A stretch of DNA of 64,000 nt from Eledone cirrhosa (GCA_964016885.1 OZ024744.1:65782001-65846000); one strand, 5' to 3'; shown: positions 6,191 through 57,406, counted from the stretch's first letter. Notes: a model not told the origin generated them from the sequence alone. Made by a program: numbers and translations.

Positions 6191-6409
6191 TTTAACCCTT
6201 TAGCATTTAAACCAGCTGTATCTGGCCAGAATTATCTCACTTTCCTTCTGTTCAAACCCACCATAACCGGCTGCTCATGTGGATGTTATAAGGTATTCAT
6301 CTCAAAATAATAATATTAAAATCTCATAGATTCTATATTATGTAAGGTAAAGCCTGTACTGTGAAAATACAATAGTAAATATAAAGTAATATAAATGCTA
6401 AAGGGTTAA
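6191..6409. mobile_element. piggyBac-like MITE (about 210 bp), representative copy
   Basis: TTAA|CCCTTTAGCATTT ... AAATGCTAAAGGG|TTAA; further copies near 2680-3514, 12277-12447, 21048-21245, 24606-24817, 25082-25295, 30720-30922, 38979-39369, 39915-40126, 42259-42475, 49727-50058, 50197-50379, 50938-51062. Confidence 0.88.
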
Positions 6410-7016
6410 AATAGTTTTATTTAGTATTGAAAGTTTAAAAAACAAAACAATTTGATGTGAAATTATTAATCACACAGCAATGCTTGTTTTGAATATATGT
6501 GGGAGCCTGGCTTAACTATGATAATATGTGAAAATGTGTGGGAGCCCAGCTTAATTCTGATAAAATCTAAATATCTATGTGAGAGCCTGGCTTAACTATA
6601 ATAGTGTGGGAAGCCTGCTTCATTGTAATAATTTTCTTATAAATTTCATTACAAAATAATTTTTTATTTTTTTAAATTTTTATGATGGTGATAAATCACT
6701 TTCTTGATTGTTATATTTGCAATGTTTTAGCCCCTATAACCTCCAGTTTTTTTTATGGTGCCTGTCATATTTGAAAATTAAAATAAAACAGTTAAAAATT
6801 GTGAGATGATATTACCTAACACAACAAACACCTAAACAAGGTCAAAGAGGATAACATTGTGATTATAACAACCAAGATAAGGGAGACTAGCTTGAATAAA
6901 TCAGTTTATAATAATAATTCTGGCGATATATTTGTTTTGCAAGGTTTTTTTTTATATGAAATCATGTGTTGAAACAGATATTGTTATATTTAAGGATTTT
7001 TGCCCTAATATTACCA

Positions 7017-7372
7017 GAAAAATATAGTAAAACACACTCATCACTGTTTGGTCTGGTTTGGCTTTCGCTTCAGTATATTTTTATATTTCTATAAATAATT
7101 TAGCTGGCAATCAATGTTTATCATTGACCAACATTTAAAAATATAGATATGTAGTTTCTCAAAGTTCTTTCATCACACATATCTGCAACATTCTCAGTGA
7201 TTATCATGTTTCCATGTTTCCTCCTGTTGTGTTCCTTTCTACCTATTTTTAAATGTTGGTCAATGATAAACTTTGATTGCCAACTAAATTATTTATAGAA
7301 ATATAAAAATATACTGAAGCGAAAGCCAAACCACAAACCAAACAGTGATGAGTGTGTTTTACTATATTTTTC
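7017..7372. repeat. inverted repeat, about 127-bp arms, 100-nt spacer, in the last MAX intron
   Basis: 7017-7143 vs 7244-7372, few mismatches. Confidence 0.93.
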
Positions 7373-15299: not shown

Positions 15300-17936
15300 C
15301 ATCATCATCATCATCATCATCACCGTTTTACGTCCGTTCTTCCACGCTAGCATGGGTTAGACGGGTTGTCCTGTTGTGGGCAGTGTCTGGTCGGCTGACC
15401 ATGCCTTGCTCATACAGGAACTGATCTGGCTTGATTTCTACAGCTGGATGCCCTTCCTAACACCAACCTCATTTACAGTGAGTGCTGGGTGCTTTTTCGT
15501 GGCGCCTACACGTCCACTTTACAGTGTGGGCTGGGTGCTTTTTTGCCGTGGCACCTCCACGACCACCTTGCGGTGGGGGGGGGGGCATATTGTTTATATG
15601 CTTCAGCATGTACCCATGGGAGGTCGGGTACCCTGTATTACTGCGTGACGCCAGAAGTCACGGTCGTGTGTCATTGACTTTGAGAGGTGTAGTTGGGTAA
15701 GGTCGGCTTTTATCACCTCATCCCAAGTCATCTTGGGTCTCCCCACTCCGCGGTTTCCATCAACTTCTAGTGCTCTGCACCTTTTTATGCAGCTGTCATC
15801 CTTCATACGCATCACATGTCCATACCAGCGTAACCGCCTCTCCTGCACGCAGCATTTGATTCCTCTTATGCTCAGTCTCTCTCTCAATTCATTTATGCTT
15901 TGTCGTTCACGTATATTACTGTTACACATCCATCGGAGCATGCAGGCTTCGTTTCTCTCTAATCTACGTAAGTCTTCCACCTTCAGCGCCCAGGTCTCAC
16001 TACCATGCAACATCGCTGTTCGGATACACGCATCATACAGTCTGCCTTTCATTCTGAGGGAGAAGCCTTTTGCAGCTAGCAGTGGTAGTAGTTCCCTAAA
16101 CTTCTTCCATCCCGTTCTTACCCTAGTTATTGTACTTTCTGAGCACCCACCTCCGTTGCTAATTCGGTCACCTAGGTAGCAGAAGCTGTCTACTGTTTCT
16201 ACAGGGCCCTCCCAGAGATTGGTGGTACTTGTTTCCTGTGGCTGTTTGCTTGCTGTTTCAGCACAGCTGCTGCATGTGAATCCTACATTCTTAATTAAGC
16301 TTCCTGAGATCCCGCTACATCTCTTGTGTACCCATTGTTTGCATTTGGGGCAAAGAATGGAGTTCCTACCTACACCTTTCCTACATACTGAGCAAGGCCA
16401 TTTCCCTGAGGGGATCTGGGTTCTGTTTTCTCGTCTACTTATAAGGACCTTAGTCTTTGTCATGTTGACTTTGAGGCCCTTTCTCTCTAGTCCCTGCTTC
16501 CAGGTTTGGAATTTATTCTCTAGTTCTACCATAGATTCAGCTATGAGTGCGAGGTCATCAGCATACAGGAGTTCCCATGGGCATCCGGTCTTAAACTCCT
16601 CCGTTATTGCCTGCAGGACTATGATGAACAGGAGAGGGCTAAGAACAGAGCCCTGGTGGACCCCAACCTGTACGCTAAATTCCTCGCTATACTCATTGCC
16701 AATCCTAACTTTGCTGACTGCTCCCCTATACATGGCTTGTACCGCTTTCACAAGCCATTCATCTACTCCTAGTTTTCTAAGAGCCCACCAGATTACTGCA
16801 CGTGGAACTCTGTCAAAGGCTTTCTCAAGGTCGACAAATGCCAAGTAGAGTGGCTTACTTTTAGCTAGGTACTTTTCCTGTAATTGCCTCACAAGGAAGA
16901 GCGCATCAGTGGTGCCTTTCCCTGGAACAAACCCAAATTGCATCTCGTCTATATTCACCCGGTCCCTAATCAGCTGTGCTATAACTCTTTCTGTTACTTT
17001 CATGACCTGGTCCATCAACTTTATACCTCTATAGTTTCCTCTATCTAGTGCATCGCCTTTACCTTTGTAGCAGTTGACAATGATGCTACTGCACCAATCT
17101 TTTGGTATGGCCCCCTCTAGTATTACCTGGTTAACGATACGTGTGGTTATAGTGTGACCTACAGACCCAGATGCCTTCAGCATCTCGGCAGCTATACCCG
17201 ATGGACCGGTTGCCTTCCCTATCTTCATATCTCTGATTGCCTTACTTACTACGCTGCCGCTGACTTGTACTGCTGGTCCCTCTATAGGGTCTACGTGGGG
17301 TAGGGTCTCTTCTTCCCATGCATTCTCCTCATTTAGTAATCTATCATAATGACTCTTCCATGCATCTTTCTTCTCAGCACTTGTGAGGGCAAGCTCACCT
17401 TTATCATTCCGGATACACTTCTCTCCAATGACATCACAACTATCTCTGACACACTGCCTCGCAATCTTGAATACCTCCTGTTTCTGGTCCTCACGTTGTA
17501 AAACATGCTTGAATTTTCTATCCTCTGCTTCCCTCCTAGCTAAGTATACTTGTCGCCTAGCTTCCCTCTTGGTCTCTATGTAATGTACCCTGCTCCCCCC
17601 GTTCTTCCATTCTTTCCATGCCTGTCTCTTGGCCTTGACTGCTTCATCTACCTTATTGTTCCACCACCAAGTCACTCTCCTCCTGCTTGAGGTCTTACTC
17701 CAGCCACAAACCTCATCCGTCGCCTCTAGTAAGTTATTTTTTAGGAACTCCCAGTTCTCTTCTACGTTAAATGTCTCTATCTGTTCTTCTTTACTGTCGT
17801 AGGCGTTGAGTAAAATATCTTTAAATCTGTTACTGGTTGAGGGGACTTTCAGCTTCCAGATCTTTCTTCTCCAGGTTGGCCTCTGTTTCAGGGCTCGTCT
17901 AGTTCTGACCGTGAGGTCGCTGACAACTAAGCTATG
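15300..17936 (-). mobile_element. RTE-clade LINE, 5'-truncated, with 3' UTR and (GAT)n tail
   Basis: Uninterrupted frame 17936 to 15603, then a UTR shared with many local fragments and a (CAT)n run on + at about 15300. Confidence 0.93.
15603..17936 (-). CDS. LINE reverse transcriptase ORF (partial, about 778 aa; frame open upstream of the tracked GTG start)
   Basis: NYRGIKL, QFGFVPG, FVDLEKAFD, GVHQGSVLSPLLF, LLYADD, FCYLG, RRLRWYGHVMR and GRPKMTW motifs; PHD-like C4HC3 insert. Confidence 0.92.
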   Translation of the reverse strand, partial: HSLVVSDLTVRTRRALKQRPTWRRKIWKLKVPSTSNRFKDILLNAYDSKEEQIETFNVEENWEFLKNNLLEATDEVCGWSKTSSRRRVTWWWNNKVDEAVKAKRQAWKEWKNGGSRVHYIETKREARRQVYLARREAEDRKFKHVLQREDQKQEVFKIARQCVRDSCDVIGEKCIRNDKGELALTSAEKKDAWKSHYDRLLNEENAWEEETLPHVDPIEGPAVQVSGSVVSKAIRDMKIGKATGPSGIAAEMLKASGSVGHTITTRIVNQVILEGAIPKDWCSSIIVNCYKGKGDALDRGNYRGIKLMDQVMKVTERVIAQLIRDRVNIDEMQFGFVPGKGTTDALFLVRQLQEKYLAKSKPLYLAFVDLEKAFDRVPRAVIWWALRKLGVDEWLVKAVQAMYRGAVSKVRIGNEYSEEFSVQVGVHQGSVLSPLLFIIVLQAITEEFKTGCPWELLYADDLALIAESMVELENKFQTWKQGLERKGLKVNMTKTKVLISRRENRTQIPSGKWPCSVCRKGVGRNSILCPKCKQWVHKRCSGISGSLIKNVGFTCSSCAETASKQPQETSTTNLWEGPVETVDSFCYLGDRISNGGGCSESTITRVRTGWKKFRELLPLLAAKGFSLRMKGRLYDACIRTAMLHGSETWALKVEDLRRLERNEACMLRWMCNSNIRERQSINELRERLSIRGIKCCVQERRLRWYGHVMRMKDDSCIKRCRALEVDGNRGVGRPKMTWDEVIKADLTQLHLSKSMTHDRDFWRHAVIQGTRPPMGTC

Positions 17937-18224
17937 AAAGGGTTAATGTGATGCAGTCATAATGCTGTTTTGTACTTTACAAGAATGTCTTGCTAAGGTG
18001 GTTTCATAGCAGATCTAGAGAAACGTGAAGCAAATATTGTTATATAATGTTAACTTATGGTGTATACACAGGATGTACTGAGACCACAAGTAGGCTGACA
18101 GAGAAGGTAGACTTCAGATTTGTAGTAGTCAACAGTAAATGTATTCATGAAATAAACTCTCTGGTGGTTCACTAGAACTAGTGCTGAGTGACCTCATTAG
18201 TGGCAGAGGTGGAAGAAGTTGAGA

Positions 18225-19100: not shown

Positions 19101-20139
19101 CGCACGTAAAAATACATAGTATTAGTAATACAATAGATTGGTAAAAATATGTATTCTCCATTGTCAGAACTGTACAACTGTAGACTAGGTGCATGCATCT
19201 AGTCTAATGTTTAATCATCAGTTTTGAATGTATTCACAATGTTCTGATAAATGAAGAATACATGCTTTTCTCAATAATGTCTATGAAACTGGCAGTTATT
19301 TTAGTGTATTACTAATCCCATGTTTTAGAATATATAAGTTGCCTTTATGTTTACATATTGAGAGCTCATTCTTTCATAATACAAAATCCTACTTAAGTAA
19401 GCATATATATATATATATATATGTGTATGTGTTAATAAATATGAAGTCACGGTTCTACTTTTACATTACTTCAATTGAAGTATGGAAATGTTGAACCATG
19501 TCATCATATTTATTAATACATCTAGTACTAGTCTATGGAATCTCAGATCTTAAATAGGTACAACTGACGTAGAGTGCTTAAGCCTAATTACACTATAATT
19601 CGTTGATTGGTTGTGTGAAAATATAACATTGACAACCAACTAACATCAATATATATAAAGGGTGGGTTGTTGATGGGTATTGGAAGGTGACCAGAGTTAA
19701 AAAGGGTACTCAATATGTTAGTTGAGTACAGGCATTTTTATTTTATATAGAAATAATTTCTTCAAGACCCAATCCGTTTTACAATCTGTGTACTAGGTGC
19801 TTTTTACTGTGGCACTAAAATGATTAACTGACAGGTTAGACAATACTTTTTGTCGTATCACTAACACAATTTCTTTATAAGGTGGATTGGGTGTCTTTTG
19901 TCATGTCACCATCACAAGCACTTTACAGTGTGGACAGGGTGCCTGTTGTCGTGTCACTAACATGACAACCTTACAGAGTGGGATGGTCTATGATGTATGG
20001 AGTAGATATGGTCTGACACGGAATTTAAAAACAAAATAGAAATGTATTCTATGGTGAAAATTACCTGGCAACGACAGGCTACTAGAATTTATGAATCTGA
20101 GCTTGTTTGAAAAATTTGACAAATTGGAGTTCATCAAAG

Positions 20140-21830: not shown

Positions 21831-22499
21831 ACAATCTCATTATCTCATTATCTCATTTATTTGGACTGGATGATGTGGTACCAACTTTATAGAGAGAGGG
21901 TGTTGTTGGTGGGAGTGGGAGGATAGGGTAGGGGTAGTGGATTGGAGTGTATATTTGGTTAAGTGGTGCCTACTGAATGTAGGTTTCGCTTTGTACATAA
22001 TATAGATATCTATATATAAATTACAAGTATGTAAGCCTACTTTCATGCTCATAGTCTATTTATATATATATAAATTATGAGCATGAAAGTAGGCTTACAT
22101 ACTTTGGAAGACTAATGTTATCTGCAAATGTAATAGTTGTAGAATCCATGACTATAAGAGTTATCATTGTTTATATAAGTAACACACTTTGACAATTATA
22201 GAAGATATGCTAATGATGCAATACACCACTAAAGAAGATGGAAATGAGGGAAATTGAAAAGTTCGAGAGAGCTTTTCAGTTGTGTCAAGGGCATGACAAC
22301 CTCTTTATTGTTGGTGACATGGTGAAACTTATCCTGTAACTTATTTTGTAAAGTGGTTGATGATAGGAACATCCAGCGATAGAATACTTGCCAAACAAAG
22401 CTTCAAGGGGTTCTTTAATTGTGACAAAGACATGACAACCTCCTTAATGCTGGTACTATGATAAAATGAATCCGGTGCACTCTGCAATTAACTGTAACT

Positions 22500-23750: not shown

Positions 23751-25823
23751 GTTATTAAATCATATGATTCATTTCAATGTATGACTGTTTATTGTTACAT
23801 ATCACAAGGGCAAAGATAATTGGTCAATTCTACTGATATCTGGGATAGAATCAACAATTATTGCAAAGTACTTATATACCTTGATTACAGTTATCTTTGA
23901 TAGAACCTCAGTTGATAAGGTCTATATTAGACTATTTTGTATGTCACGACTGAGATAGACTATATTTCAATCACTCACTATTAAATATTACTCTAACAAT
24001 GTATCAATTCTATTGACAAACACCTTAATTAGTTCTAAACATTGTCTTTGTTTTTTCTACTTGTGGAACCTAAACCTTGACACAATAACTACAGAATAGT
24101 AATTCTTTCTTCTCTGAATAAAGAACTACATCTAGAATATGGGTTAGAATCATTTTGTTTTTCTCTGTCTCTTTCCTTTCTGCAGTAACAAGGCCAAACA
24201 GAGTAATTATCTTGTTAAAAAAAAAAAAAAAAAAATGAAATTTGGTAACAGAAAAATCTATATCTGTATTTTTTGTAATTTTTTTCTGCTCATTTCATGT
24301 TTTTCATATTCGTGTGTACCTTTATCAAAGTTTTTGCAACCAGATTTTGGATAATTCCAACCATCTGACTGATTTACAAAAAAGCCAACAAGCAAAACAA
24401 AAGTGTGAGTAAACCAACCAGTACCTAATTATTTCACAATCAGTTCTAACTTGGTGTTTGTGCAGAAATTATGCGTCACTTCATCTTTTAGAAAATTAAC
24501 AGAATTATCTTTAAGACATGACTGACAAATGTCAATTCCTAGAAGAACACATAGCGGGGTCTGATGTTTCTCAAAGCAAGTGTTGATCTTGATAACATAT
24601 AGCCATAACCCCCTAGCATTGACATAACTCTATATTTACTATCTTATTTTCATGGTAAAGGCTTTATCTCACATAATATCGAATCTACGAGACTGATATT
24701 ATTTATTTTGATAACAATACTTTAACATAAATATGAGCAGCCAGTTATGGCCGGTTTGAACAGATAGAGGTGAGAGAATTCTGGCTGTTTATAGCTGGTT
24801 TAAATGCTAATTAGTTAATGTGTCATCTTTGTACTCTGGGGGATGGTTTGCTGAACTGGTCAGGATTTCTAAAGGCTCTGTGAACATACTTGGGAAAGAG
24901 AGAGAGAGAGAGAGATTTGCCCAGTTCTATGCAAATATGTCTCCCTCTCTCTTCCACTCCTTTGAGTATGGTCACAGACCAACTGACCAAAATTATTTAC
25001 ACAATCATAAAAATGAACACTATAAAGAAGATTATACTGTATTTAAAAAAAAAAAAAAACAAATGCAATATTAAAACCTGATTAAGAGTTAGACTTATTT
25101 AAACTGGCTGTATCCAGCCAGAATTCTCTCATCTCTTTCTGTTCAAATTGGCTGTAACTAGTCACTCATACTCATGTTAACGTATTGTTCTCAAAATAAA
25201 TAAAATCAAAATCCCATAGATTCGATATTGAGATAAAGCCTTTACCATGAAAATACAATAGTAAATATAGAGTAATGTAAATGGTAAAGGGTTAAAGTTC
25301 ACTCTATTTCATTTTGGTGATATGTCTATGGTCTTATAGTACAAATATAGCAAAACATTGTCAAGTATACTGGAGAAAGGATGATGATGATGAGAAGATC
25401 TAGAGGAGAGCTGTGAGCAGGTTATCTACCTGCACAGTAGAAAAACCAGACCATCTAACATTTTACAGAAATGTTTTACTTTGTAAATAGTAGTTGATCC
25501 TAAAATTAGCATCTTTCTTCATATTCTTCGTTTCAGAACGCAGAAACAGCCACAATTTGATACATGTAGTCCCAGGACTGTAGAAACAATATTAAGCAGG
25601 GTCTGGATAGTATATTAGGGGATCAGGTTTATCTAAGATTGGATTGGACAATTCCTTCAGAGGCTGATTGTGTTTTTACAAACAGAAAGCTACACACACA
25701 CAAATATCTCAAAAGTAACTCGGATGATGTACAGTTACGGAAACACTTTTGGAGCTATTGTGTATGAGAAATCAATAAACCACATGCTACCACATGCTAT
25801 ATGTTTAAGTACCTGGCTGTCAT

Positions 25824-27373: not shown

Positions 27374-28061
27374 ACTGGGATCCATTGCCATAAGGTTTTC
27401 TGAAGCTTTTGTAGCTTTCTATTCATTATTGATATGCTCCAGTTCTTTGTTGAGATTCGGGTCAGTGAGATCATCAAATCTGCTGATGTTACACATCACA
27501 TGACTGGTCAAATATCTAGTATTTCCCCAGTTCTGTGGATCAATGGTATCTTCATTTACACCTTTGTAAACACACCAGGATTGAATATCATTGACCTTTT
27601 GTCTTGGCAAAATAACATGGAGAGAGAGAGATTTGCCCAGTTCTATGCAAATATGTCTCTCTTCTACTCCTTTGAGAGAGAGAGAGGAGTTCTATGCAAA
27701 TATGTCTCTCTCCCTTCCTCTCCTTTGACAGAGAGAGAGAAAGAGAAAGAAGGAGTGAGAGAGAGAGAAGGTGTGTGTGTGTGAGAGAGAGAGTGTTTCA
27801 GTATATTCAACATAGTCTGATAAAGTACTATTAATTATATAGATTATTTAATTATTAATTATATAATTATATAAATAAATAAATAAAAAATAAAGTACCA
27901 GTAATGCACTGGGTAATTGCTGGCCTTGTGCCTAAAGTAGAAACAATTAATTAGTAATAAATGATAGTACTTTATCAGACTATGTTGAATATGCTGAAAC
28001 ACTCTCTCACACACACACACACACCTTCTCTCTCTCTCACTCCTTCTTTCTCTTTCTCTCT

Positions 28062-32208: not shown

Positions 32209-33043
32209 TATATATATGTATGTATATATATATGTATATGAATATATATAACAGTTGGATCATGGTATAACCATTATTGCCATTAAAAAATGTCACATAT
32301 GCCAGTATAATATTTACTTTTATTATATTTTCCAATAGTATTATATATTTTATTGAGTATCATAGTATTGCATCATACACATCTATTATTGATTACTCTA
32401 CTGCATTATATATATACACAGTGTCCCACCCCCCACCAAAAAAATATATATACACATACTTCAATTCTTTGAAAAAAATGCATTAAAATAAATTCTGTTT
32501 TATATGCATTATTTACTTTTATTTACGTTCTGAGTTCAAATCCCACCGAGGGTAACTTTGCCTTTCATCCTTACAGGGTCGATAAAATAAAGTACCAGTA
32601 ATACACTGGGTAATTGCTGGCCTTGTGCCAAAAATAGAAACTATTATTTAAATTATGTAAACATTTTTGGGTGTTTACATACAATTGAATTATATCTGTA
32701 GATCATTTTATTTTTGGGAAAGGCTCTGCATTCTAATAAATATTACCTGTACAGCTAATCAAGGTAATGATACATTTTTGGGGGACAACCTGTATATATA
32801 TATATATGTACACACATACTCATATATATATATTTACATACTGTCGTTATGTCTTCCTGTTTTCTAAAGGTAATATTTGGTAGTAACTTCTTTGAAATAT
32901 TTACTGTCTACAGCTTAATTTTTCTCAATTTCAGAAGATTCTGCTTAGAGTGAAAGCAGAATTCTTTGCTTAACCTTTTAATCTATACTAATATATATAT
33001 ATGATACTATATACATATTTATATAGTGTAAGGAAACAACAAA

Positions 33044-33122
<79 letters not shown>

Positions 33123-33169
33123 TTTTGGGTTCAATCAGAGATAACCACAGTAAGTAAGGTACTCAATAC

Positions 33170-33270
33170 ATCATGTTTAATATAGAAATGGCTTCTACAG
33201 GACTAGAACTGTTTCATTCAAAAGGAATCAGTTCTAGTCCTGTAGAAACCATTTCTATATTAAACATGAT
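33170..33270. repeat. inverted repeat, 42-bp arms, 17-nt loop
   Basis: 33170-33211 vs 33229-33270, one mismatch. Confidence 0.93.
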
Positions 33271-33331
33271 ATATATACATATATAAATATAAATAAATAT
33301 ACACGGGTGTGTATGATTGTGTATAGAAGAT

Positions 33332-33694
33332 TATATTAATAAAAGGAATTCCAACTTTGTCTGATTTACTCGTTTTATTTACAATCCTTTAAAATTTATA
33401 ATGGTATTAGAATGAAATAGTATGATAGAATATTAAATGTTAAGTGTTAATTGAACAAGTACTTTCATGCTTTCACAATCTTCAGGTTCGTATTCTGTGG
33501 TGACAGTCTGAAAACTTGACTGTCACCACAGAATATGAACCTGAAGATTGTGAAAGCATGAAAGTACTTGTTCAATTAACACTTAACATTTAATATTCTA
33601 CCATACTATTTCATTCTAATACCATTATAATTTTTAAAGGATTGTAAATAAAACGAGTAAATCAGATAAAGTTGGAATTCCTTTTATTAATATA
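33332..33694. repeat. long inverted repeat, 177-bp arms, 9-nt loop
   Basis: 33332-33508 vs 33518-33694, about 4 mismatches. Confidence 0.95.
33536..33574 (+). ncRNA. minimal type I hammerhead ribozyme motif (mirror copy on - at 33452-33490)
   Basis: TGAAC-CTGAAGA-tTGTGAAAGCAt-GAAAGTACTT^-GTTCA: core, 5-bp stem I, 3-bp stem II with GAAA loop, palindromic stem III AAGTACTT. Confidence 0.65.
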
Positions 33695-34317
33695 TATATA
33701 TATGAGGGTGATTGGGACCTGATAAAGTTTGCCTCTTAATACTAGGTTGATTTTTATTATGTTATCATCTTTCTTTAGGGTGATTACATTTGGTTTAGGT
33801 TCATTTCCTTGTTATGGGTTTCAGGTTTTGTTGATTAGATATGAAATATTTAGTGACTGATTTTATTTGTGGCGGATGTAATATTATTTTGTTAAATTTT
33901 GTATTTTATGGCTTTGAACAGTATTTGTGTGGTGTGGGTCGTGGGTGCTTGGGTGTGTACTGTTTGTTTACTATTTTCTGCTTTAATTCGGTGGGGTTGT
34001 GAGGGAAATATTATTTTATACACACACACAAAGATCTTAACACAAATGCATGCTACCTAAGGTTACATAGATACACTATGTATGTTAGTTTAGTTATTTT
34101 CATCATCATTTTTTTTGTTCGATGATAACTAAACTATCAGATATACGATATCTATTTCCTACACTGGTTGAAGCTTGAAACCTAAGGTAGCATGCATTTA
34201 TGTTGAGATCTTATTCATATAATATATTTTGACTCAATATATTACATAGAACACTTTTTTTCCTTGATCTATTCTTCGGAAACTCTTGGCACTAATATAT
34301 ATATATATATATATATA

Positions 34318-34589
34318 TAGTTATGTAATAAACAACATAAGATAATTATTTCATTTACCAGTGGTTTCTTGAAAGCAGATATATCTACTTTCAGTCGTCA
34401 GAATGAATAAAAAATGGTGTTTTTATTAAATATGGATTTAATTTCATATTTCTTATATTTTGTTTTCAAATCCATATTTAATAAAAACACCATGTTTTAT
34501 TCATTCTGACGACTGAAAGCAGATATATCTGCTTTCAAAAAACCACTGGTAAATGAAATAATTATCTTAAGTTGTTTATTGCATAACTA
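34318..34589. repeat. inverted repeat, 122-bp arms, 28-nt spacer
   Basis: 34318-34439 vs 34468-34589. Confidence 0.95.
34350..34407 (-). ncRNA. type I hammerhead ribozyme motif
   Basis: Minus strand TTCATT-CTGACGA-cTGAAAGTAGATATATCTGCTTTCAa-GAAAC-CACTG-GTA^-AATGAA: complete core, 6-bp stem I, palindromic stem II, short stem III. Confidence 0.72.
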
Positions 34590-34893
34590 ATAAGCTCTGT
34601 AACCTACATAGAGCACTCTTTTTTCTTGTACCTTTCCGACGGAATTACTTCATTTACACGCACATATATATATATGTATATATATATATATAATTTTAAT
34701 CATCATGATAATCCTTATTTTATTGTATTATGTCCCTTTTTTGGTGCTGGAATGAAATGGGGTGGATGGGCTCTCGTTGTAGAACAAATCAGTACATTAT
34801 TGGAGCTAGTGTCTTAGAACCAGGTCATGGAACCACATCCTATTAGATAAGTCCCATGCGTGTGTATATATATATATACATATATATATATAT

Positions 34894-35002
34894 GAAAATG
34901 TTTAACCCCGATGGCAGAGCTCAAGCCGTTTTGACGGCTATTTCTGGTCCAGAAATAGCCGTCGAAACGGCTTGAGCTCTGCCATCGGGGTTAAACATTT
35001 TC
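34894..35002. repeat. near-perfect palindrome, 54-bp arms
   Basis: Centre at 34948, one mismatch. Confidence 0.95.
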
Positions 35003-35082
35003 CTTTACCCACTCTACTACCCTAAGTATTGAGTACTCTGGTGCGTTATGGTCCATCTGGTTCCTTATCACAACTCCTTCGT

Positions 35083-35113
<31 letters not shown>

Positions 35114-35379
35114 AAATGGAAGCAGTAAAAACTTGTTAGACATTACTCACCAAAGTACTCAATACTTGGTGTAGTAGAGAGTGCTAATATGAAAGAGCCG
35201 GGACCCCAACAGGTGAGCTCCTACCATTTGGAACTAGCTGTTGAAACAAAAGGAGCTCAGCCTTTGGGGTCACGACTCCTTCATATAATGTATATAGGAC
35301 AAAATGAAACAAAAGTTAAATATTGTGGTATATGTGTGATTGAAATGGCTACAGTGATTTACCTTGAGTCCACATATGT

Positions 35380-38760: not shown

Positions 38761-38903
38761 CTATTTTACCTTTACATCAAATGATGTTATTATCATCAGA
38801 TGAGATTTAAATGCTTCGACTCTCCTCTCCAATGCTGCATTTTCATATTCTAAGATCTGAATATCACTAGCATTGTCATAGTCAATGTTTTCAACTGGTT
38901 CAC
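38761..38903 (-). CDS. KIF26: KIF26-like terminal coding exon
   Basis: taacag|GT phase 1; CEPVENIDYDNASDIQILEYENAALERRVEAFKSHLMIITSFDVKVK*, matching the KIF26 C-terminal 'LE.RV...K.HLM.IT.FD'. Confidence 0.9.
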
Positions 38904-40654
38904 CTGTTAATGGATAAAGAAGTAAAATATATGAGTATGGGGGTCTTTTCAAGGTGCCAAAATATAATACTGCATAGTTTAACCCTTTAGCATTTACATT
39001 ACTCTATATTTACTATTGTATTTTTATGGTAAAGGCTTTAGCTAACATAATTATCTCACATAATATCGAATCTATGAGAGTTTGATATTATTTATTTTGA
39101 GAACAATACTTTAACATAAGTATGAGCAGCTGGTTATGGCCGGTTTGAATAGAAAGCGGTGAAAGAATTCTGGCTGGATACGGCCAGTTTAACCCTTTAG
39201 CATTTAGACTGGTCATACCCGGCCACTCATACTGATGTTAAGGTATTGTTCCCAAAATAAATAATATCAAAATCTCATAGATTTGATATTATGTGAGATA
39301 ATTATGTAAGGTAAAGCCATTATCGTGAAAATACAATAGTAAATATAGAGAGTAATGTTAAAGGGTTAAAATTTGTTTTGCTCTATTTGAAAATATATTG
39401 AATTCACTATAAGTTCAGATGTTGATATCTGAATCAATACAGTCTACAAATGTTAACATTTATATTATACTTCTTCAGTTACATAGGGGTTTATTATTTT
39501 ACAGGCATGTGGATTGGCAGTATCAGTAGAGTGTCAGACATAATGCTTTGCAGCATAGAGTTATGTCCCTTTATGTTCTGGGTTCAAATCCCGTTGAGGT
39601 TAACTTTGCCTTTACTGGGTTGATAAAATAAAGCACAAGAGTCCACAGAGCGCATTTTAACATGTTACCTACATTAGAAAGGTGGTCTTGTCTAATGTTG
39701 GTGCCACAATTCATATTTTAAATTCCATTGAAAGGGCCCATAGAAAATAAATAATGGCTTCTACTTTAGGTACAAGGCCAGCAATTACCCAGTGCATTAC
39801 TGGTAATAAATAATGGCTTCTGATTTAGACACAAGGCCAACAATTTTGGACGAGGGAAAAGTTGATTAAATCAATTTCGGTGTATTACTGGTATTTTATT
39901 TTATTGACCCCATAATCTTTTAGCATTTGACTTGACTGTATCTGGCCAGTATTCCTTCACCTCTTTCTGTTCAAACTGGCTGTAACTGGCCACGGATATT
40001 GATGTTAAGGTTTGTTTTCAAAATAAATAACATCAAAATCTCATAGATTCGATATTATGTGAGATAAAGCCTGTACCATGAAAATACAATAGTAAATATA
40101 GAGTAATGTAAATGTTTAAGGGTTAACTATGAAAGGCAAAGCTAACTTCAGTGGAAATAAATAATAAATAAATATGTATGAGATCTGATTAAGACAAAAT
40201 AACTTGAAATATACTCAGAATTCTCACACTGATTAGCTTGAAAAAGAAAAGAATTTTAGTTAACATGAAAATAACACATCATGAAATATCATTAAATAAA
40301 ATTATATTTTTTAGATAAATACATTGGTAAACATTGGGTAGGGTAGTTAATATAATATAATTGAATCCTAAATATTGGTATGGTTTGGACTTGTAACTCC
40401 CAAGGGAGTCATAGGGATACCATATTGGCATATGGCATTTCTTAGAGCATTTTAAAATCTAGTGAAGCCCATCTCCTCTCCAGGCCTCATTACAGAAGAT
40501 TCCTTCCAGAGAAGGATAAAGAATGGAAGTGAGAAAGAAATATAGAGGAAGAATTGTCCCCAGTACTAGACTGGTACTTTTTTTTTATTGACTTTTATAT
40601 TACAAGTACTTATTTGATTAAACTTTGGTGAGTAGGAGTGATGGTTCCATAATA

Positions 40655-42000: not shown

Positions 42001-43314
42001 TAGGATAGTAATATTAGTCATAAGATTTGACTTCATAACTGTATAGTCAGTAGTATAATATTTTTAACTTCCCATTCATTGTGTCTTGTAAAATAATATT
42101 CTTTTTTAAACTAAATATGCATAACAATATTCCCCATTCTTTGATACATTCAGAATTCTAACCAGCTTTTAACCTTGATTTCAGGCTGTTGTAAAGTTGT
42201 GAGTTTGATTAAACACAAAATGAACTTTGTAGTGAGGAATTCCTTTTTTTTAAATCACTTAACCCTTTAGCATTTACATTACTCTATATATACTATTGTA
42301 TTTTCATGGTAAAGGCTTTACCTCACATAATATCAAATCTACAAGATTTTGATATTATTTATTTTGAGAACAATACCTTAACATCAGTATGAGTGGCCAG
42401 TTACAGCCAGTTTGAACAGAAAGAGGTGAGAGAATTTTGGCCGGATATGGCCAGTTTAAATGGTAATGGGTTAATCAGTCTAAAAGCCTCCTCCCCACCC
42501 CCAAACTAGTTTGGGGGTGGGGAGGAGGAAGAGGTAAGATCCCAAGCTTGACTTGAATGTTTTGCAACAGAGTACAGTCTTTTAAAGATACTCAAAGATC
42601 AAGTGGGGCTGTTAAACTGGACAACAAACCAAGTTGGTCACAGTGGGATCTGAACTCAGAATGTAAAGAACCAAAATGAATGTTGCAAGGTTAGTCAACC
42701 ACCCTTAACTGATACTTTATTTATGAACCCTAGAAGGATGAAAGGAAAAGTTGGCCATGATGGGATTTGAACTCAGAATGTAAGGAGCTGGGATAAATAC
42801 TGCAAGGCATTATGTTGTACGTTGTATGTTCTTTTAATCCTTCTACAAATTTACTGCCTATAAGTTATTTGCATTGACCAAAAATACAAACAGTAGTCAT
42901 TATTTGTATCAATCCCAGACAGACAGAAGACAAAGTAAACCAGAGAGGGATTTGAAGAGATACAATATCGAACATGGTACACTAGAAACTTCCATTTTTT
43001 TATAGACTTGTTAATTTGCGATAAGGTAAGTTTTTACTGGTAAGATGAAACTTTGAGGCTTAGAGTTAGGATTAGAGTGAAGGTGAAAAATAAAAGTTAG
43101 AATAAGGGTTAGAGCAAATGTTATGTTATGTTTAAGATTTATGAGTTAGGCATAAGGTTAGAATTATGGTTAGGCTTAGCAATTAAAGTTATTAATAGAG
43201 AAATAAAATGCATGCCTTTGTTAAGCTTCGCCTCCTGCAGGAAAGGATGGTGGAGGATTTTTCAAAGCTCTGTCTTTCTGGCCCTTCGGCATGTAAAACA
43301 CAGGAGCGACTTAC

Positions 43315-43435
43315 AGTCAAAGTTCCAAGATGCCTGTTCAATCAAGAGACGGTCCTTAGCTGAGGTCAACTCCTGCTTAAGTTCTTCTTGCTTGTTTAAA
43401 AGTTCAAGCACTCTTTCTCGACGTTGTTCATAGAC
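43315..43435 (-). CDS. KIF26: KIF26-like exon, C-terminal coiled coil
   Basis: (TC)n tract then cacag|GTC...GACT|gtaag, 121 nt; VYEQRRERVLELLNKQEELKQELTSAKDRLLIEQASWNFD. Confidence 0.9.
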
Positions 43436-43465
43436 CTGTGTAGATTGAAGAGGAAAGTAAAGTAA

Positions 43466-45289: not shown

Positions 45290-46820
45290 ACACAGAAGCG
45301 GGTAGCACACACATCTAGGACCACATACAACACATAAGCAGGTAGCACACACATCTAGGACCACACACAACACAATCAGATAATACACACATCTAGGACC
45401 ACATACAACACATAAGCAGGAAATACACACATCTAGGACCACATACAACATATAAGCAGGTAATACACACATCTAGGACCACATGCAACACATAAGGAGG
45501 TAGCACACACATCTATGACCACATACAACACACAGGCAGGTAATACATACATTTAGGACCACATACAACACATAAGCAGGTAATACAAACATCTAGGACC
45601 ACATACAACACATAATCAGGTAATACAAACATCTAAGGCGGGTAAAATTCCCGAGATCCATGGACGAGTTCTCTCCAGAGGTCTCTGTCCCTCATTATCG
45701 CTGCCATGTCCTGCGTCTCCAACAGACCAGTGTCTGTCCTTAGGGCATCAACTTACAGGCTTATGGAATCCCCAAGAGGATAGTGGACCTGATATCACTG
45801 CTCTACACCAACACCAAAGCCCAAGTCATTACACCTGATGGGATGACAGAGTTCTTTGAGATACTGGCTGGAGTGCTCCAGGGAGATACATTGGCTCCCT
45901 ACCTTTTTATCATTGTAGTGGACTATTGTATGCACCTTGCACTGGAGAAACACCAGGACTCTGGCTTTACTGTAGCACCGGCTCAGAGCAGGAGAGTTAG
46001 GGCGAAAAAGGTATTGGATGCTGAATTTGCCGACGACATAGTTTTGGTGACAAATACAGTGAAGGAGGCAGAGGATTTGATGCGGGAGGTTGAGACTGTG
46101 TCGATGAGTATGGGGCTGAGAATGAATGAGACTAAAACAAAATATCTGGTAGAGAATGTTGAGAAGCCAGAGGGGATCATTAATGTAGGCGGGAAGCCAC
46201 TAGAATTGGTTGAGGGCTTCCTGTATTTGGGAGCAAAGATTGGGAATACGGAAGATGATGTGGTTGAGAGGAAGAGCAAAACCTGGGCGGCGTGCCACAG
46301 CTTGAGATTGGTGTGGAAGTCGGACCTTCGTAAAGACCTGAAAGTCCGCCTCTTCATTGCTGTAGTGGAGTCTGTGCTGCTGTACGGGTCTGAGACTTGG
46401 ACACTGACCAAGAAACTCACTCAGATGGTGGATGGGTGCTAGACGAGAATGCTGAGGATGGCTCTGAACATTAATCAGTATACACTGAGGATGAAAAACT
46501 CAGAGCTGTATGGGAGCATCCCAAAAGTCAGCTCAAAAGTGACACAGAGGAGACTGAGGTTAGCTGGACATGCTCACCGACATCCAGAGTTGACATTGCA
46601 CTCAGTGCTCCTGTGAGAGCCCCTACATGGACACACTAGAAGAGGAAGACCAAGGTTAATGTATGTTGATACAAACATCTAGGACTACATACAACACATA
46701 ATAAGGTAATACATACATCTAGGACCACATGCAATACATAAGCAGGTAATACATACATCTAGGACTACCTACAACACACAGGCAGGTAATATATACATCT
46801 AGGACCAAATACAACACGCA
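45290..46820. repeat. 39-40 bp minisatellite (about 9 + 4 units) split by the LINE fragment
   Basis: Unit GGTAATACACACATCTAGGACCACATACAACACATAAGCA. Confidence 0.9.
45636..46668. mobile_element. RTE-like LINE fragment with internal inversion
   Basis: 45753-46670 (+) encodes GVLQGDTLAPYLF, FADD, FLYLG, LLYGSETW and RGRPRLMYVD; 45752-45636 (-) continues VDALRTDTGL...RDRDLWRELVH; flanked by repeated ATACAAACATCTA. Confidence 0.88.
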
Positions 46821-49495: not shown

Positions 49496-51341
49496 CTGAA
49501 ATAGTAAAAAACAACAACAACAATATTAAACAACATCTTAGTATTACAAGTCTATGGACATGTAATCTGTATGATCTATCATACTCTACGATAATATCTT
49601 GTCAGCCTTACAATGCTTCTTTGTCTATCGTCCATACACAATCTCTGTACTATACTATAATGTTTCTCTGTCTAACTGAATTTGTTCTCACTCTCTGGTT
49701 ACCCTCAATAAATCAATGGCTACTTGTTAACCCTTTAAACCAGCCATATCCAGCCAGAATTCTCTCACCTCCTTCTGCTCAAACCGGCCATTATCGGCTG
49801 CTTAGACTTATGTTAAAGTATTGTTCTCAAAATAAATATCAAAATCTCGTAGATTCAATATTATGTGAGATAATAATTGTTTCTACTTTTGGCACAAGGC
49901 CAGCAATTACCCAGTGTATTACTGGTACTTTATTTTATCGACCCCATAAGGATGAAAGGCAAAGTTAACCTCGGCGGGACAGATAATAATGTGAGATAAA
50001 ATGTTTACCATGAAAATACAATAGCAAATATAGAGTAATGTAAATGCTAGGGGGTTAAATTGATGGTTACCTTTAAAATGATAGTTACTTTTATTCAATC
50101 AAAGGTTACCTCGTCAGTCTCCAGTTAATATTATTTAGTCAATAGTTAAACTTGTTTAGTCAATGGTTACTTTTGTTTAGTCAATGGTTATTTACATTAA
50201 CCTTTTAGCATTTACATTACTCTATATTTACTATTATATTTTCATGGTAAACAATTTCACATAATTATCTCACATATTGAATCGTTGAGATTTTGATATT
50301 ATTTATTTGATATTATTTGATATTATTTGATATTATTTATTCCAACTGAATATGGCTGGTTTAAATACTAAAGGGTTAAGCTGACAGTTACCCTCATTAT
50401 GGTGATGACATTGGTTATCATCGTAGTTCAGCTAACAGTGGAACTCTTGTATGCCCATCATTCATATATACATATGAGAACAGGACACATCTAAACACAA
50501 CCTTATTGTTAGAAATACAGATACAACATCACTAGGAACATGTATGTATTCATGAAGATATTTTTAAAAAGAATTTCAAATAGTTGCTTCTACTTTTGGC
50601 ACAAGGCCAGCAATTATCCCAGTACAATACTGGTACTTTATTTTATCGACCCTGAAAGGATGAAAGGCAAAGTTAACCTCGGTGGGATTTGAACTCAAAT
50701 CATAAAGGGACGGAACTCTATGCTGCAAAGCATGGCGTCTGACCCTCTACCGATACTGCCAATCCAACATTGTTTTCTCTGTCTTGTAAAAATGGTTTGT
50801 CTTCTTGTGTATGAGTATCAGTAGGCTTCAACCAAGTTAAAATTTAGATGACTTGAATCACTAAGGGAGATTCTCTGTAGACACTTTACTTGATCAATCT
50901 AGCAGTCAGATCACTAACAACAAATACTTTAACGTCTTTAACCCTTCAACATCTACATTACTCTATATTTACTATTGTATTTTCATGGTAAAGGCTCACA
51001 TAATATCGAAACTATGAGATTTTGATATTATTTATTTTGAGAACAATACCTTAACATCAGGATGCAAGAAAGAAAATAACTCCAGCAAAGACATAATATA
51101 TTTTTTAGTCCACTCCCTTACATCCAGGATTGCCTCGGAAATGTAACTTTTTACTCAATCTTGCTGCACGATAATGGTTAAATAATCAAGTGGCTATGAT
51201 TGTCATTGAAATATGTATCACGCCCTTATTAATAAAGGTCTCCTTTAACATCTACAACTTCACATTATTATAACTCCATCATCCTTATTTTGAAGAAGTA
51301 ATATGGTGTTGAGTGTTTGAGTTGAATTGCATCTATGTCTA

Positions 51342-51786: not shown

Positions 51787-51838
51787 AGTCTTCCTCCTAC
51801 CTATTTAAGAAGGAGAACAGAACAATAGAACAACATAC

Positions 51839-54800
51839 CTGGTACTTTTTTTCTTCGTGTCCCTTTTTTACGGTCACTTGACGAGCACTCACTAGCTGAG
51901 TCTTCATGGGCTGATGACGATGATGATGAAGAGCCCGTTGCTTCACTGTCTCTTAGCATGCTCTCATATCCACTGCTTGTTCCTCCGCCGTGCACTTTAT
52001 CTGACCGACCGCCCATCTGTGTACGTATTTCTGTACTTACTGTACTACTGTTATCACTGCAATGTCCACTACTTGAATGCCTCACCACTCGTGGTTTTGT
52101 CACAGTTGCATACGGAGACAAGAGAGCTTCTTCACCACCAACAATTTTGTTGACTTTTATGGCACTATCCGTGCTTTTAGTCCGACCCCTACGTCCTTCA
52201 TCATGTGTTTTGGAAGGTGTTACCTTTTCACCTCCACTTTCAGAACCCTTACTTCGTCCCTTTTGCCCATCATCATGTGGTTTTGACTGGGTTAGCTTTT
52301 CAACATTTGCTTTGTCTTTCTTACGCAGTTTTGATAATTGACAAAGGTTTGAAGGGTTAAAGATTGGAAGCCTTGAGCGATTGGGTGATTGGGATTTTGA
52401 CCCAGAAGATCTATTTCGGGCATTAGAATTTGTTGATTGATTTACAAATCTTGAGGCTTTAGAACCTCGCTCTTTGCCCCTACTATTGTGGCTAGATGAC
52501 GTTAATGAAACTGTTGACCCTTTGCAATGTTTAGCTTGAACTGTTGGAGATGAAGATGATGTTTGATGAGGCACTTGATTGTTATGGCCTGATGATGATG
52601 TCAATGATGGTGATGATGGCAGTGAACCTTTGCAATACTTAGCTTGAGTTGTCGGCGATGAAAGTGGAAGCGATGATCCGACATGACTATTATAACTTGA
52701 CGATGACCCTTTAGACAGGCTACCCTGAATTGTTGGAGATGACGGTAGTGCTGGTCCTTGATTAGTATAACCTGATCCCTCAGAAAATTTTGTTTGAACC
52801 TTTGGAGATGAACATGCTTGAGCAGAACCTTGATTGGTAAGGCTAAATGATGCTGGAACCTCACAAAGTTTGGATTGCATTTTCTCAGGTGAAAATGATA
52901 CATCATCTTCCTTTGACTTGATCTTATTTAAAGGTCTCTGCGATAATGAGGGTGACAATGGTGTTATATTATTGTTAAGATTATATACAGGGACTTGAGA
53001 CCCTGAGAACTTAGAAACTGTATCCTCATCATATGGAGAAACCACTGAGTACACTGGTAGACCGGGCATCTCTAAGTTATCATTACTGTCTGACAACAAA
53101 CTGGCATTTTCTGATTGTTTCGATGTTATATATATGCTAGATGATGTTGGGTTAATGGTGTAGTTTTGCTTTATTACAGATACATCAAATGCTCCACTTT
53201 CTTCGTGAAATATTTCTTTTGATAAACAGGGCTCTGATGCGCCATCAAGATTTCGGGAACAGAGAAGCTTACATTCCAAAACAGACTCTTCTTCAGATAC
53301 CTCTTCAAGGTCGGAGAGTTTGCTTCCTTCATACTGACAATGGCTTCGTACGTCCCTCATTAGTGGTGGCTGTTCACTATGAGCTGCATTAAGGGCTTTG
53401 AGTTTTTGGACAGTAATAACACGTTCCTCTTCTTGTGCAATCGCCAAGCTTTCAGCATCTTCTTTTGGAAAAGACACACTACTGAATGTATCATCATCTG
53501 TTGCATCAGGGTTATTTTTCCTGGCAAGTTCCAGCTGTTGATCTACATGAATTTCATAGATTGATTCACGATTTGAAATTAGGAGGTTGGCAAATTCTGT
53601 TTCTGGGTTGTTATCATTGACAGTATCACCACTATTATAGAATCCTTCAAACTTCTGTTCACTATTAACTTCATCGTCAGTAAACCAAACTCTATCAATC
53701 TCTTTACCTAGAGCCTTAGCATCTATTGATGCTAAAGTCTCAGAGCCAATGACCCCAGTATGTTTCAATGCTCCAAACTTGAGATTTATATTTGGACTAG
53801 AATTTCCAGTTTTCATTTCATGCTTACATTGCTCGTCATCAGTTGAAACAGTTTTCAGCCACTCAGCAACTCTTCTGGTTGTGTGAGCATTATTAACACC
53901 AACACAGTCTGTTGTTTCTGAGATTGGATCAATTCTAGTTGATGATGGCTGGATACTGTTTATTGTTGGGCATGATATGATGGAAGCTTGGGGTTGGCTA
54001 TAATTTGTGAAGGATTCTAGGCTTCCTATGACTTGATTACATGAATCAACTATAAAACCGAGGTTCGGATCGTTTTCTCCGCACGGTGCTGGTAAAGAAC
54101 CATCTGGAAATGTTCCATGTCTTTCAACCCAGCCCGTAACAAATTTCTCCAAACCGTCCTCGATGCCATTCTCAATGCTATTTGCAATTGCATCAACAGA
54201 GATATCTTCTTCTACAGATTGCACATTACTATGGAAACTTACTGGTCTTGAATCTGATGGCTCAGCATTTACTGAATCTGCACTAGCTGTGCTTTCAGGT
54301 CGTGACCCTTGGTTAGGTGTATCTTGCTGTGTAATGTTTGAGTCAATAGGGGCAGAAAGCATTGGGGACAGTGAAACAGCAATACTTCTGTCTGGCGATT
54401 TGCGATTAGATGTGGACGGCTGGTTTGTTTGTAAAGGACATTTCTTTCTGCTGCTTGGCCCAAAGTGCTTTGCTTGGTTGATATTAGATACCCGTGTGTC
54501 ACAAGTGGACATGTCCGCACCACTGCTAGGTCCATCTATCCAACGCTCTGACTCGCATTCCTCTTTTGGCATTGCTACACTCCTTACAGTCTGGGTATCT
54601 CCATCAGAAGAATTCCCATTTCGTCGCTTAGCAACCCAGACACGTCCCCTAAAACTCTCGTCTGTTTCTTTAATAGCTCGAGGTTGTTTTCTGGAAGACC
54701 CATTGCTTGTTCTCACCATAAATGCCTGAGGACCATCAACCCACAACTCTGTACTCTTTTTATCAGGGTAGATAGCAGCCCCGGGACCATCTACCCATTG

Positions 54801-55409
54801 TTCCATGAACTCTGAACCTTCGTTGTTTATCTGGTGTCGACCATTCATTCCACCTTCAGGTTTAAATTTCGATAATGGCATCTTTTGCTTAATATTTGTC
54901 CTACGGGCGATTTGATAGCCAGTAGAAGACGGGACCAGTGGTGGAGAGGGACAGTCATGTGAGGAACTTGGAGTTGCAACAGGCGACATGACAGGTATTC
55001 GTGACTGTGGACTTGGCTCCCGATTATAATACAATTTGCTGACAGAAACACGCCCAGAATCTACCGGGGAAAATTTTCTACCAGTATCTGATGCAGATCC
55101 TTCATCTCCTGACGACCTGGATCCACTTGTTCGACGTGGCAGGCGTGGATTTGTTCGAGGAAGCAAGGGCAGGGATTTTGGGGGACCTTCGTTATCGGTC
55201 AGCTCTCGGTCACTCAATGACTGACCGTTGATTCCCATATATATCACAGTGTCACATGACTGTTCGCTACCCGACGTACAGTCTGGGTCTGATAGGGAAG
55301 ATGAGTATAGGAAATCTTCTCTAAGGGTACCCATTCGAAAGCCTCTTAAAGGTCGTCGTAACCTTCCAGATTCATCTGTAGAACTGTCCTCAGAACTGGT
55401 ACTTGAAAA
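51839..55409 (-). CDS. KIF26: KIF26-like giant exon (3571 nt), Ser/Pro-rich stalk
   Basis: ttttcag|TTT...CCAG|gtatg inside the 1214-aa ORF; contains KIF26 motifs SSSLSDPDCTSGSEQSCDTVIY, LSDRELTDNEGPP, SPYATVTKPR and SSGYESMLRDSE. Confidence 0.93.
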
Positions 55410-55477
55410 CTGAAAAAGTTTACAGGAAAGAACAAAAAAAAACAAAAAAACAAGGTATAGTTTAATTGACTAAATCT

Positions 55478-56659: not shown

Positions 56660-57188
56660 AATATAATAATAAGTGTTTCTACTTTTGGCACAAGGCCAGC
56701 AATTATCCAGTACATTACTGGTATTTTATTTTATCGACCCCGTAAGGATTCAACATCCATTTTGAGAAAAATCTGTTTCAAAGGGGTTTTGTACCGCCTT
56801 GCAATATTTCTCCTTGTACTGCTACCTACTGCAACAGTTTCAGCATTTCTAAACATAAAGGGGCGTAACTCTATGTTGCAAAGCATGGTGTCTGATTAAT
56901 AATTGTTTCGACTTTTGGCACAAGGCCAGCAATGACCCAGTGCATTACTGGTGCTTTATTTTTATCGACCCCGTAAGAATGAAAGGTAAAGTTAATCTTG
57001 GTGGGATTTGAACTCAGTCCATAAAGGGACGTAACTCTATGCTGGAAAGCATGGCGTCCGACCCTCTACCGATACTGCCAATCCACCACAATCCGAATAA
57101 TAATAATAATAATTGTTTCTACTTTTGGCACAAGGCCAGCAATTACCCAGTACATTACTGGTACTTTATTTTATCGACCCCGTAAGGA

Positions 57189-57220
<32 letters not shown>

Positions 57221-57406
57221 TGTTTCTACTTTAGGCACAAGGCCAGCAATTACCCAGTGCATTACTGGTACTTTATTTTATCGACCCCGTAAGGATGAAA
57301 GGCAAAGTCAACCTCGGCGGGATTTGAGCTCAGATCGTAAATGGACGTAACTATGCTGGAAAGCATGGCGTCTAACCCTCTACCGATACTGCCAATCCAC
57401 CGCCCT

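Follow-up and report, generated by a model that had tools for sequence, protein, structure and literature searches.

The window, by which we mean the whole 64-kb stretch of Eledone cirrhosa DNA that was analysed, contains the host gene KIF26, the large exon of which (51801-55469) shows 89% identity to the KIF26B protein of O. bimaculoides. Two candidate last exons lie on the minus strand, at 43265-43438 and 38761-38896; mollusc database isoforms end at the exon near 43265, and the vertebrate-like C-terminus sits in 38761-38896, a conserved exon that ends with the stop codon 38761-38763 and belongs to the context rather than to the elements described here. Past this stop, at a distance of 3.5-5.6 kb, six fold-back units (E1-E6) are packed into 2.2 kb, mostly within (TA)n tracts. 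This distance, as given by the original prediction, is borne out via the conserved C-terminal exon, the database isoform ending at about 43265 instead. AATAAA signals at 38615 and 38517 are located upstream of the cluster on the KIF26 strand. The cluster is preceded by a (TA)29 target tract (33062-33119). In total, 77 TA tracts of at least 10 bp are found in the window, and intact stubs are confined to the 2.2-kb stretch.

Several other repeats are present in the window. A seventh, decayed E1-like end at 19660-19770 (minus strand) carries the tail motif described below at 19715 within an 8-bp hairpin and a short TA run at its end, with no inverted arm. Short hairpins are located at 19427-19521 (83% arm match) and 22025-22104 (92%), the first of which comes after a (TA)n tract and is possibly another old stub. 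Longer inverted-repeat elements occur at 7017-7372, 24606-25294, 38978-39370, 49981-50270 and 27734-28061; two of them (24606-25294 and 38978-39370), as well as a pair at 6191-6410, have similar ends and a MITE-like look. Non-LTR retrotransposon ORFs with an RVT_1 domain lie at 15603-17942 (minus strand; 779 aa, additionally with a PHD finger) and at 45744-46442 (plus strand). A dispersed SINE-like repeat, putatively a cephalopod SINE, has copies at 32530-32640 and 57096-57299.

The six hairpins that had been predicted were all recovered, with coordinates agreeing within a few bases. E1 (33120-33274, minus strand) is a stub composed of an inverted arm (33229-33274), a loop, a sense arm (33211-33166) and a 46-nt tail, and in its hairpin (33166-33274) 44 of 46 bases pair around a 17-nt loop. 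A hammerhead is represented by its 3' half (GAA at 33215), and of a stem-loop, termed SL1, this copy has the 3' strand (33168-33158) but lacks the 5' strand; other copies of the E1 family continue into a CTGATGA core (loose ends at 33230). E2 (33300-33694, minus strand) has 177-bp arms (hairpin 33332-33694, 173/177 bases paired), a type I hammerhead that is complete in both of them (33532-33577 on the plus strand, 33494-33450 on the minus strand) and no SL1. A left-side tail of about 30 nt is probable for E2, and a contig of run X5 matches from 33311, beyond the arm end. E3 (34031-34293, plus strand) is an older stub, in the hairpin of which (34031-34212) only the outer 37-bp arms pair well (33/37) and the interior has decayed; the 3' half of a hammerhead (34177) and a decayed SL1 (34231-34255) are followed by a tail that reaches up to a (TA)12 tract. 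The 5' strand of this SL1 is canonical in the majority letters of other copies at 34232, 34236, 34237 and 34240. E4 (34318-34660, plus strand) consists of 122-bp arms (hairpin 34318-34589, 117/122 bases paired) with a 28-nt loop, SL1 at 34594-34617 and then the tail. E5 (34894-35082, plus strand), the most abundant family in the reads, has 54-bp arms (hairpin 34894-35002, 53/54 bases paired), a hammerhead 3' half, SL1 at 35011-35037 and an 80-nt tail. Finally, E6 (35112-35286, minus strand; hairpin 35187-35286, 29/35 bases paired) is the oldest-looking stub, with SL1 at 35182-35154; it is placed tail to tail with E5 over a (TA)14 tract and is related to it, 34 of 39 bases being identical across SL1.

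By their tails, E1 and E6 are oriented on the minus strand and E3-E5 on the plus strand, E2 being probably minus. In five units (E1, E3-E6) the tail is one-sided, 46-81 nt long and ends in (TA)n. The microsatellite borders claimed earlier hold on most sides, which are (TA)n or (CA)n, but E6 on its outer side and E2 on its left are bordered by sequence that is AT-rich only. The arms are, as had been stated, mostly unlike each other, since among the units only E5/E6, E3/E4 and a motif of 11-14 nt can be aligned. Insertion into (TA)n is evident both from the flanks in the window and from loose ends of other copies that run into (TA)n, and the organisation is that of an insertion unit of Penelope-like elements (PLEs), namely an inverted 5'-truncated copy in head-to-head arrangement, with a one-sided tail and, in the reads, a fixed tail-less end. 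Target-site duplications are indiscernible within the (TA)n flanks, and Craig et al. (2021, PMC8557442) have noted the same for Naiad and Chlamys elements. Provided that both arms of a unit started out identical, the units are of different ages. The spacer between E2 and E3 (33705-34020) is G/T-rich, mildly repeated in run X1 (depth 8-180 vs 8.5) and contains no ORF; it is possibly the 3' UTR of a different TA-targeting element.

With a descriptor for type I hammerheads that tolerates a single unpaired base at both ends of helix II, three complete hammerheads were found in the whole 64 kb, all of them belonging to the cluster, where E2 has one in each arm and E4 one in its left arm; any match was obtained in 1 of 1000 shuffles. 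In the E4 hammerhead, helix II is palindromic and 12 bp long and helix III measures 4 bp, the pairs of the latter being by eye the same as in Hydra-1_Obim; the left arm (minus strand from 34401) carries an intact version, and in the tail-bearing arm (34506-34551) G12 is changed or lost. Only 3' halves are present in E1 and E3 (by descriptor) and in E5 and E6 (by eye). That two hairpins hold complete cores and the rest partial ones was therefore foreseen correctly, but the hammerheads are not minimal, as had been supposed; they are canonical type I with a short palindromic helix III, not helix-III-less. Such canonical hammerheads are a feature of the Hydra clade of PLEs, and besides the full ones of E2 and E4, other copies complete helix III of E5, through the letter at 34984 (96% of the depth in run X1), and the core of E1. 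Among the best 150 of 172 Rfam matches none is a hammerhead in the region analysed, and only hairpin and microsatellite matches below threshold occur. Owing to the head-to-head arrangement, the arm in hammerhead sense is the second one whichever strand is read. The predicted probability of helix I pairing is 0.6-0.9 in isolated hammerheads and 0 in whole hairpins, so that the hammerhead-sense arm, being transcribed second, is predicted to be trapped in the duplex and the ribozymes would therefore be silent. Hammerhead cleavage was ruled out as the origin of the 5' ends, because no unit of the window begins at the cleavage site.

The tail motif is located at 33168(-), 34245, 34607, 35027 and 35164(-). 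It had been described as two related tail motifs; both are covered by one degenerate 11-mer that occurs in E1 and E3-E6, but not in E2, so that the claim of shared tails stands for five of the units. Five occurrences in the cluster compare with a mean of 0.07 in 1000 dinucleotide shuffles, and two more are found elsewhere in the window. The 11-mer is the 3' strand of the covarying bulged stem-loop SL1, which is also present in the 3' ends of published Hydra-clade PLEs and is conserved with elements of coral and sea cucumber. An alignment of 28 representatives shows a GCUC/GAGC lower stem, a small 3' bulge and an upper stem that covaries, with double changes in 3 of 3 pairs, and RNAalifold recovers the same hairpin; for the whole structure, 0 of 500 shuffles scored as high, a control that overstates the significance because the aligned sequences are related. 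In five related loci Rfam gave nothing at the gathering score, and SL1 thus fits no Rfam family at that threshold. A covariance model was built from the 28 loci outside the window only and the 64-kb window was then searched with it. The six best matches of the full model all fall in the cluster (E4 with E 2e-12, the inverted arm of E4, both arms of E2, E3 and E5), and E6 ranks eighth (E 0.19). A model of SL1 alone places E4 (E 1e-6), E5 and E6 (E 0.011) as the top three in the window. In this search E1 was matched by neither model, and E3 was missed by the SL1-only model. A 3' end shared with named Hydra families is accordingly found for E3-E6 by the covariance models and for E1 by the 11-mer only, and was not found for E2.

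The cluster was compared with reads and contigs of 4 of 11 listed octopus runs, in which the summed contig depth does not equal copy number. In run X1 this summed depth reaches 1e5-2e6 over E1, E2, E4 and E5, about 2e4 over E6 and about 5e2 over E3, and in run X9, a reduced library, 32,621 of 12,467,656 raw reads (0.26%) fall on the 2.2 kb. Octopus genomes are a few Gb in size, and these values would correspond to roughly 1e4-1e5 genomic copies. By read depth the arms recur in the genome, each hairpin matching highly repeated octopus DNA. At about 35004 many copies come to an end and give way to (TA)n, as seen in 178 contigs of X1 and 1051 reads of X9, and the fold-back (strand-switch) joints vary among genomic copies, falling at several different places. 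An exact 544-nt contig (depth 8.5, no differences) runs across the end of E2, the spacer and E3. Three bins across 34653-34871 have zero depth in every run, partly because repeats were skipped. A joint from 33205 to 33172, seen in a deep contig and 69 reads, suggests a head-to-tail unit of about 72 bp of the E1 family elsewhere in the genome.

Relatives were sought in metagenomes with a query composed of the hammerhead core, a gap and the tail motif, and 120 of about 350 matching stretches were analysed. The set is biased in that it was selected by the hammerhead and the motif of the query, two families make up 41 and 16 of the 94 loci with a full hammerhead fold (94/120), and short-read assembly disfavours long hairpins. 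A GCTCT-like 5' strand of SL1, absent from the query, lies upstream of the motif in 91/94 of the full-hammerhead loci, and an adjacent inverted copy is present in 26/94, or in 25 of the 74 with enough upstream sequence. A match to a Hydra-type ORF was found in 22 of the 120 loci, the query locus L062 included; some of these have the end of one ORF upstream and the start of the next ORF downstream. In L062 an intact ORF of 706 aa (2707-4824, minus strand) is located directly upstream of the same hammerhead-SL1 end. Hydra ORFs combine a reverse transcriptase (RT) with a C-terminal GIY-YIG domain, carry RWK, DKT and CxCx5C motifs and lack CCHH; the three motifs can be read in the L062 ORF. Pfam named no family for the L062 ORF, and at least 3,233 relatives of its protein were found at E<=1e-20 among 8,000 candidates scored. 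Named relatives of this Hydra-type protein include ones from a coral, a bivalve and a bryozoan, and the number of relatives far exceeds the 27 families in the original table. The adjacent RT and GIY-YIG ORF that the original prediction proposed to look for is therefore present in metagenome loci (22/120), but there is no Hydra ORF in the 64-kb window (best E 0.96); a six-frame reading of the spacers 33705-34020 and 34695-34860 revealed no PLE ORF, and two words from the spacers had no match in the portions of the supplement of Craig et al. (2021, PMC8557442) that were available. In viral contigs a loose pattern gave 26 matches with neither a folding hammerhead nor a TA tract, which were taken as chance, and the octopus-type SL1 pattern was found 0 times.

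The ends of the units follow a regular pattern. In 22 of the 24 metagenome hairpins that do not lie at a contig edge, 3-11 nt separate the end of the inverted arm from SL1, the exceptions being a gap of 36 nt and one mis-called motif; the corresponding gaps in the window are 4 nt in E4, 8 in E5, 4 in E6 and 19 in E3. A second stem-loop, SL2, follows SL1 after 34-47 nt in 7/107 loci, compared with 15/20,600 shuffles, and in 5 of these 7 an ORF starts just downstream; the SL1 model scores SL2 weakly (E 0.005-0.2). Stubs are without SL2, while full leaders carry it just beyond the point where the tail ends. In one AT-rich family (family 3), compared by eye, the stub tails match the full leader up to a few bases before SL2. 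On the other side, 5' ends cluster 7-13 nt before the hammerhead core in 13/17 and 6/10 cases in the two largest metagenome families, which are of coral type, and 7 of the 17 fall exactly at -11; this position is occupied by the A of an initiator-like motif, which a TATA-like tract precedes by about 30 nt. These counts are conservative, as de-duplication over-merges hairpins, and the query and assembly bias applies to them. The coral-type pile-up of 5' ends is not seen in the six octopus units: the start lies within the hammerhead in E1, E5 and E6 and about 66 nt upstream of it in E4. In 4 of 25 metagenome joints the centre is a single nucleotide, with A, T and G all occurring.

The known systems to which these units can be compared are considered here from the available portions of each source. 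Hydra PLEs carry canonical hammerheads and almost all insert in (TA)n, the clade includes Hydra-1_Obim from O. bimaculoides, and for Penelope-13_HM an inverted 5'-truncated copy has been described (Craig et al., 2021, PMC8557442). The units of the window share with this clade the (TA)n target, the type I hammerhead with a short palindromic helix III and often a T.T closing helix II, the same 11-mer in the 3' end and the inverted truncated copy. The 11-mer of the E4 tail is present at the 3' end of Hydra-2_Ajap and at the 5' start of Hydra-1_Ajap in the supplement of that study, and the form of the motif found in E5 and E6 lies, by eye, about 60 nt after the hammerhead of Hydra-2_Amil, to the 3' end of which metagenome family 2 is nearly identical (by eye). 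Unlike published Hydra elements, the window units are ORF-less stubs of 100-360 bp that represent several further families; by eye, none of them is Hydra-1_Obim itself, and their tails measure 46-81 nt from the arm end as compared to 30-40 nt. Naiad PLEs, which are without a canonical hammerhead (Craig et al., 2021, PMC8557442), differ from the cluster in this respect. The Penelope elements of Adineta vaga also have a head-to-head inverted pseudo-LTR with a one-sided tail, a palindromic junction, and TATA and initiator-like motifs in the pseudo-LTR, but have a low copy number, an ORF and target-site duplications, and were explained by antisense self-priming (Arkhipova et al., 2013, PMC3846280). 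Non-LTR retrozymes and the minimal hammerheads of PLEs are likewise type I with a palindromic helix III, belong to PLE repeats and are numerous in animal genomes (Cervera and De la Pena, 2014, PMC4209133; bioRxiv 10.64898/2026.07.22.740005). However, retrozymes form head-to-tail tandem arrays of units with one complete hammerhead each, in which dimeric ribozymes are possible (bioRxiv 10.64898/2026.07.22.740005), whereas the window units are head to head with ribozymes predicted to be buried, and no such array is present in the cluster.

On the sequence evidence, E1 and E3-E6, within a cluster of six separate TA-tract fold-back units, are very probably dead-end insertions of Hydra-clade PLEs, derived from different elements and each placing two hammerhead leaders head to head. 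E2 is a PLE stub that may belong to Hydra or to another clade. On the metagenome, model and read evidence, the units are read as independent stubs of several Hydra families and not as an artefact or as one new hairpin family. The insertion hotspot for several PLE end fragments that had been proposed is thus supported and narrowed to the Hydra clade for five of the six units, E2 falling outside that narrowing, and the other proposal, of a single undescribed non-autonomous ribozyme-hairpin family, is not supported, because the units come from different families, their joints differ and the same unit stands beside Hydra-type ORFs elsewhere. As genomic objects, the stubs are a known kind of PLE insertion scar.

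As to how such scars arise, the arm ends before SL1, the position of SL2 past the tail end and the initiator-like starts suggest twin priming on a short leader RNA. The element protein, which in a related PLE is a dimer by prediction, would bind SL1 and SL2 of the leader RNA and nick both strands of the (TA)n tract. One cDNA would begin just 5' of SL1 and give the tail-less end, the other just 5' of SL2 and give the tailed end; SL1 likely marks a start of the copying enzyme. If the RNA is short or incompletely copied, both cDNAs would halt near the hammerhead or the 5' end of the RNA, by run-off or stalling, and their end-to-end joining would yield a hairpin with a tail. Stubs would be poor templates, since SL2 is not copied. 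Taken as a whole, we hold this mechanism via SL1 and SL2 to be evenly balanced between right and wrong. A precedent is PAc, a Poseidon element of Anolis, for which two internal RT starts flank the tail in vitro, both strands are nicked and extended, RNA downstream of the start is needed, a dimer has been modelled and the hammerhead is dispensable for insertion (Frangieh et al., 2024, PMC11167929, available portions). PAc resembles the present units in the two tail-flanking starts, the treatment of both strands and the AT-rich targets; it belongs to another clade and its starts lie inside the ORF at an AC-rich stem-loop, whereas in the window and metagenome units both ends are located in the 5' leader and each is closely followed by a GCUC/GAGC stem-loop. 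The local pile-up likely results from TA tracts being targeted again and again, with each insertion dividing the tract, and an attraction to existing stubs or tails may have contributed; as recounted in PMC11167929, recognition by the D. virilis endonuclease required the tail.

The same elements could also have been joined in another way, in that one cDNA snaps back and is copied until the stem-loop, or in that antisense RNA primes itself (Arkhipova et al., 2013), the endonuclease then trimming the far end to leave the tail. Both arms of E5 carry the helix III letter at 34984 that is absent from 96% of the X1 depth, and thus both stem from one template or subfamily, which suits a snap-back, as does the 2-nt microhomology within helix II at the E1 joint (by eye). 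Self-priming has been argued for in PMC3846280, and the tail attributed to endonuclease-mediated resolution in PMC8557442, each as far as the available text goes. On the other hand, the joints with a 1-nt centre (4 of 25 in the metagenome set) suit the annealing of two cDNA ends better, and we infer from them that annealing is favoured over snap-back. In E1 and E4 it is the tailed arm that is longer, in E2 apparently the tail-less arm (judged by loose ends and contig pieces), and two RT starts have been demonstrated for PAc (PMC11167929). This alternative is the less likely one, but still a serious competitor. Still less probable are hairpins that propagate themselves as non-autonomous, SINE- or retrozyme-like units, transcribed and re-inserted whole by a PLE protein in trans. 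Their very high abundance relative to any ORF and the recurrence of some joints across contigs and read starts (33218 or 33219 to 33230) fit this model, and retrozymes have been reported as non-autonomous PLE derivatives (bioRxiv 10.64898/2026.07.22.740005, available portions), but the joints mostly differ between copies, the units are not in tandem arrays, the stubs are without SL2 and the six units stem from different families.

Two further explanations would remove the units from PLE biology altogether. Inverted repeats in TA tracts, as found here, suit derivatives of TA-targeting DNA transposons, so that MITE-like or fold-back DNA transposons come to mind; MITEs have terminal inverted repeats at both ends, however, and the one-sided tails of 46-81 nt in E1 and E3-E6 mean that the repeats are not terminal at both sides. 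Together with the hammerhead, SL1 and ORF linkage, which match Hydra PLEs, this makes such an origin very improbable, and for E3-E6 it is already contradicted. Hairpins can also arise in assembly, and run X1 may be the source sample. Nevertheless, the arms differ by 2-17%, in line with the earlier point that arm mismatches speak against a fold-back artefact, the 544-nt contig covers the E2 end, the spacer and E3 without differences, up to 10 start places are seen for strand-switch joints in the raw reads of X9, which come from another study, and the same architecture recurs in unrelated datasets, namely the metagenome loci; an assembly artefact is thus barely credible.

Returning to twin priming, a more general form of it is proposed tentatively, and held with slightly less assurance than the mechanism for the stubs themselves: in Hydra-clade leaders from coral to octopus, two tandem bulged stem-loops would dock a dimeric, telomerase-like RT that starts a few bases upstream of each, and RNA started at the promoter would yield only short twin-primed copies that are joined as stubs. 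If true, this docking would account at once for the tail of PLEs, for their head-to-head inversion and for stubs outnumbering full elements so greatly. SL1, SL2 and their tie to the insertion ends were not found in the open-access full texts searched or in Rfam, and the same full texts gave no instance of arm ends 3-11 nt before SL1, of SL2 beyond the tail end or of the coral-type initiator-like start; the two stem-loops go unmentioned in the available portions of PMC8557442, in which the formation of the inverted repeats and the tail of PLEs is named as an open question. In octopus, several Hydra families seem to have reached very high copy numbers, as compared with one family described (PMC8557442, available portions). 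If they are transcribed together with KIF26, the hairpins would be putative double-stranded RNA for editing. The stubs expose a conserved, covarying RNA element with a second copy in full leaders, the positions of which match both insertion ends, and SL1 and SL2 are thereby exact and mutable candidates for how PLEs form their inverted repeats and tails.
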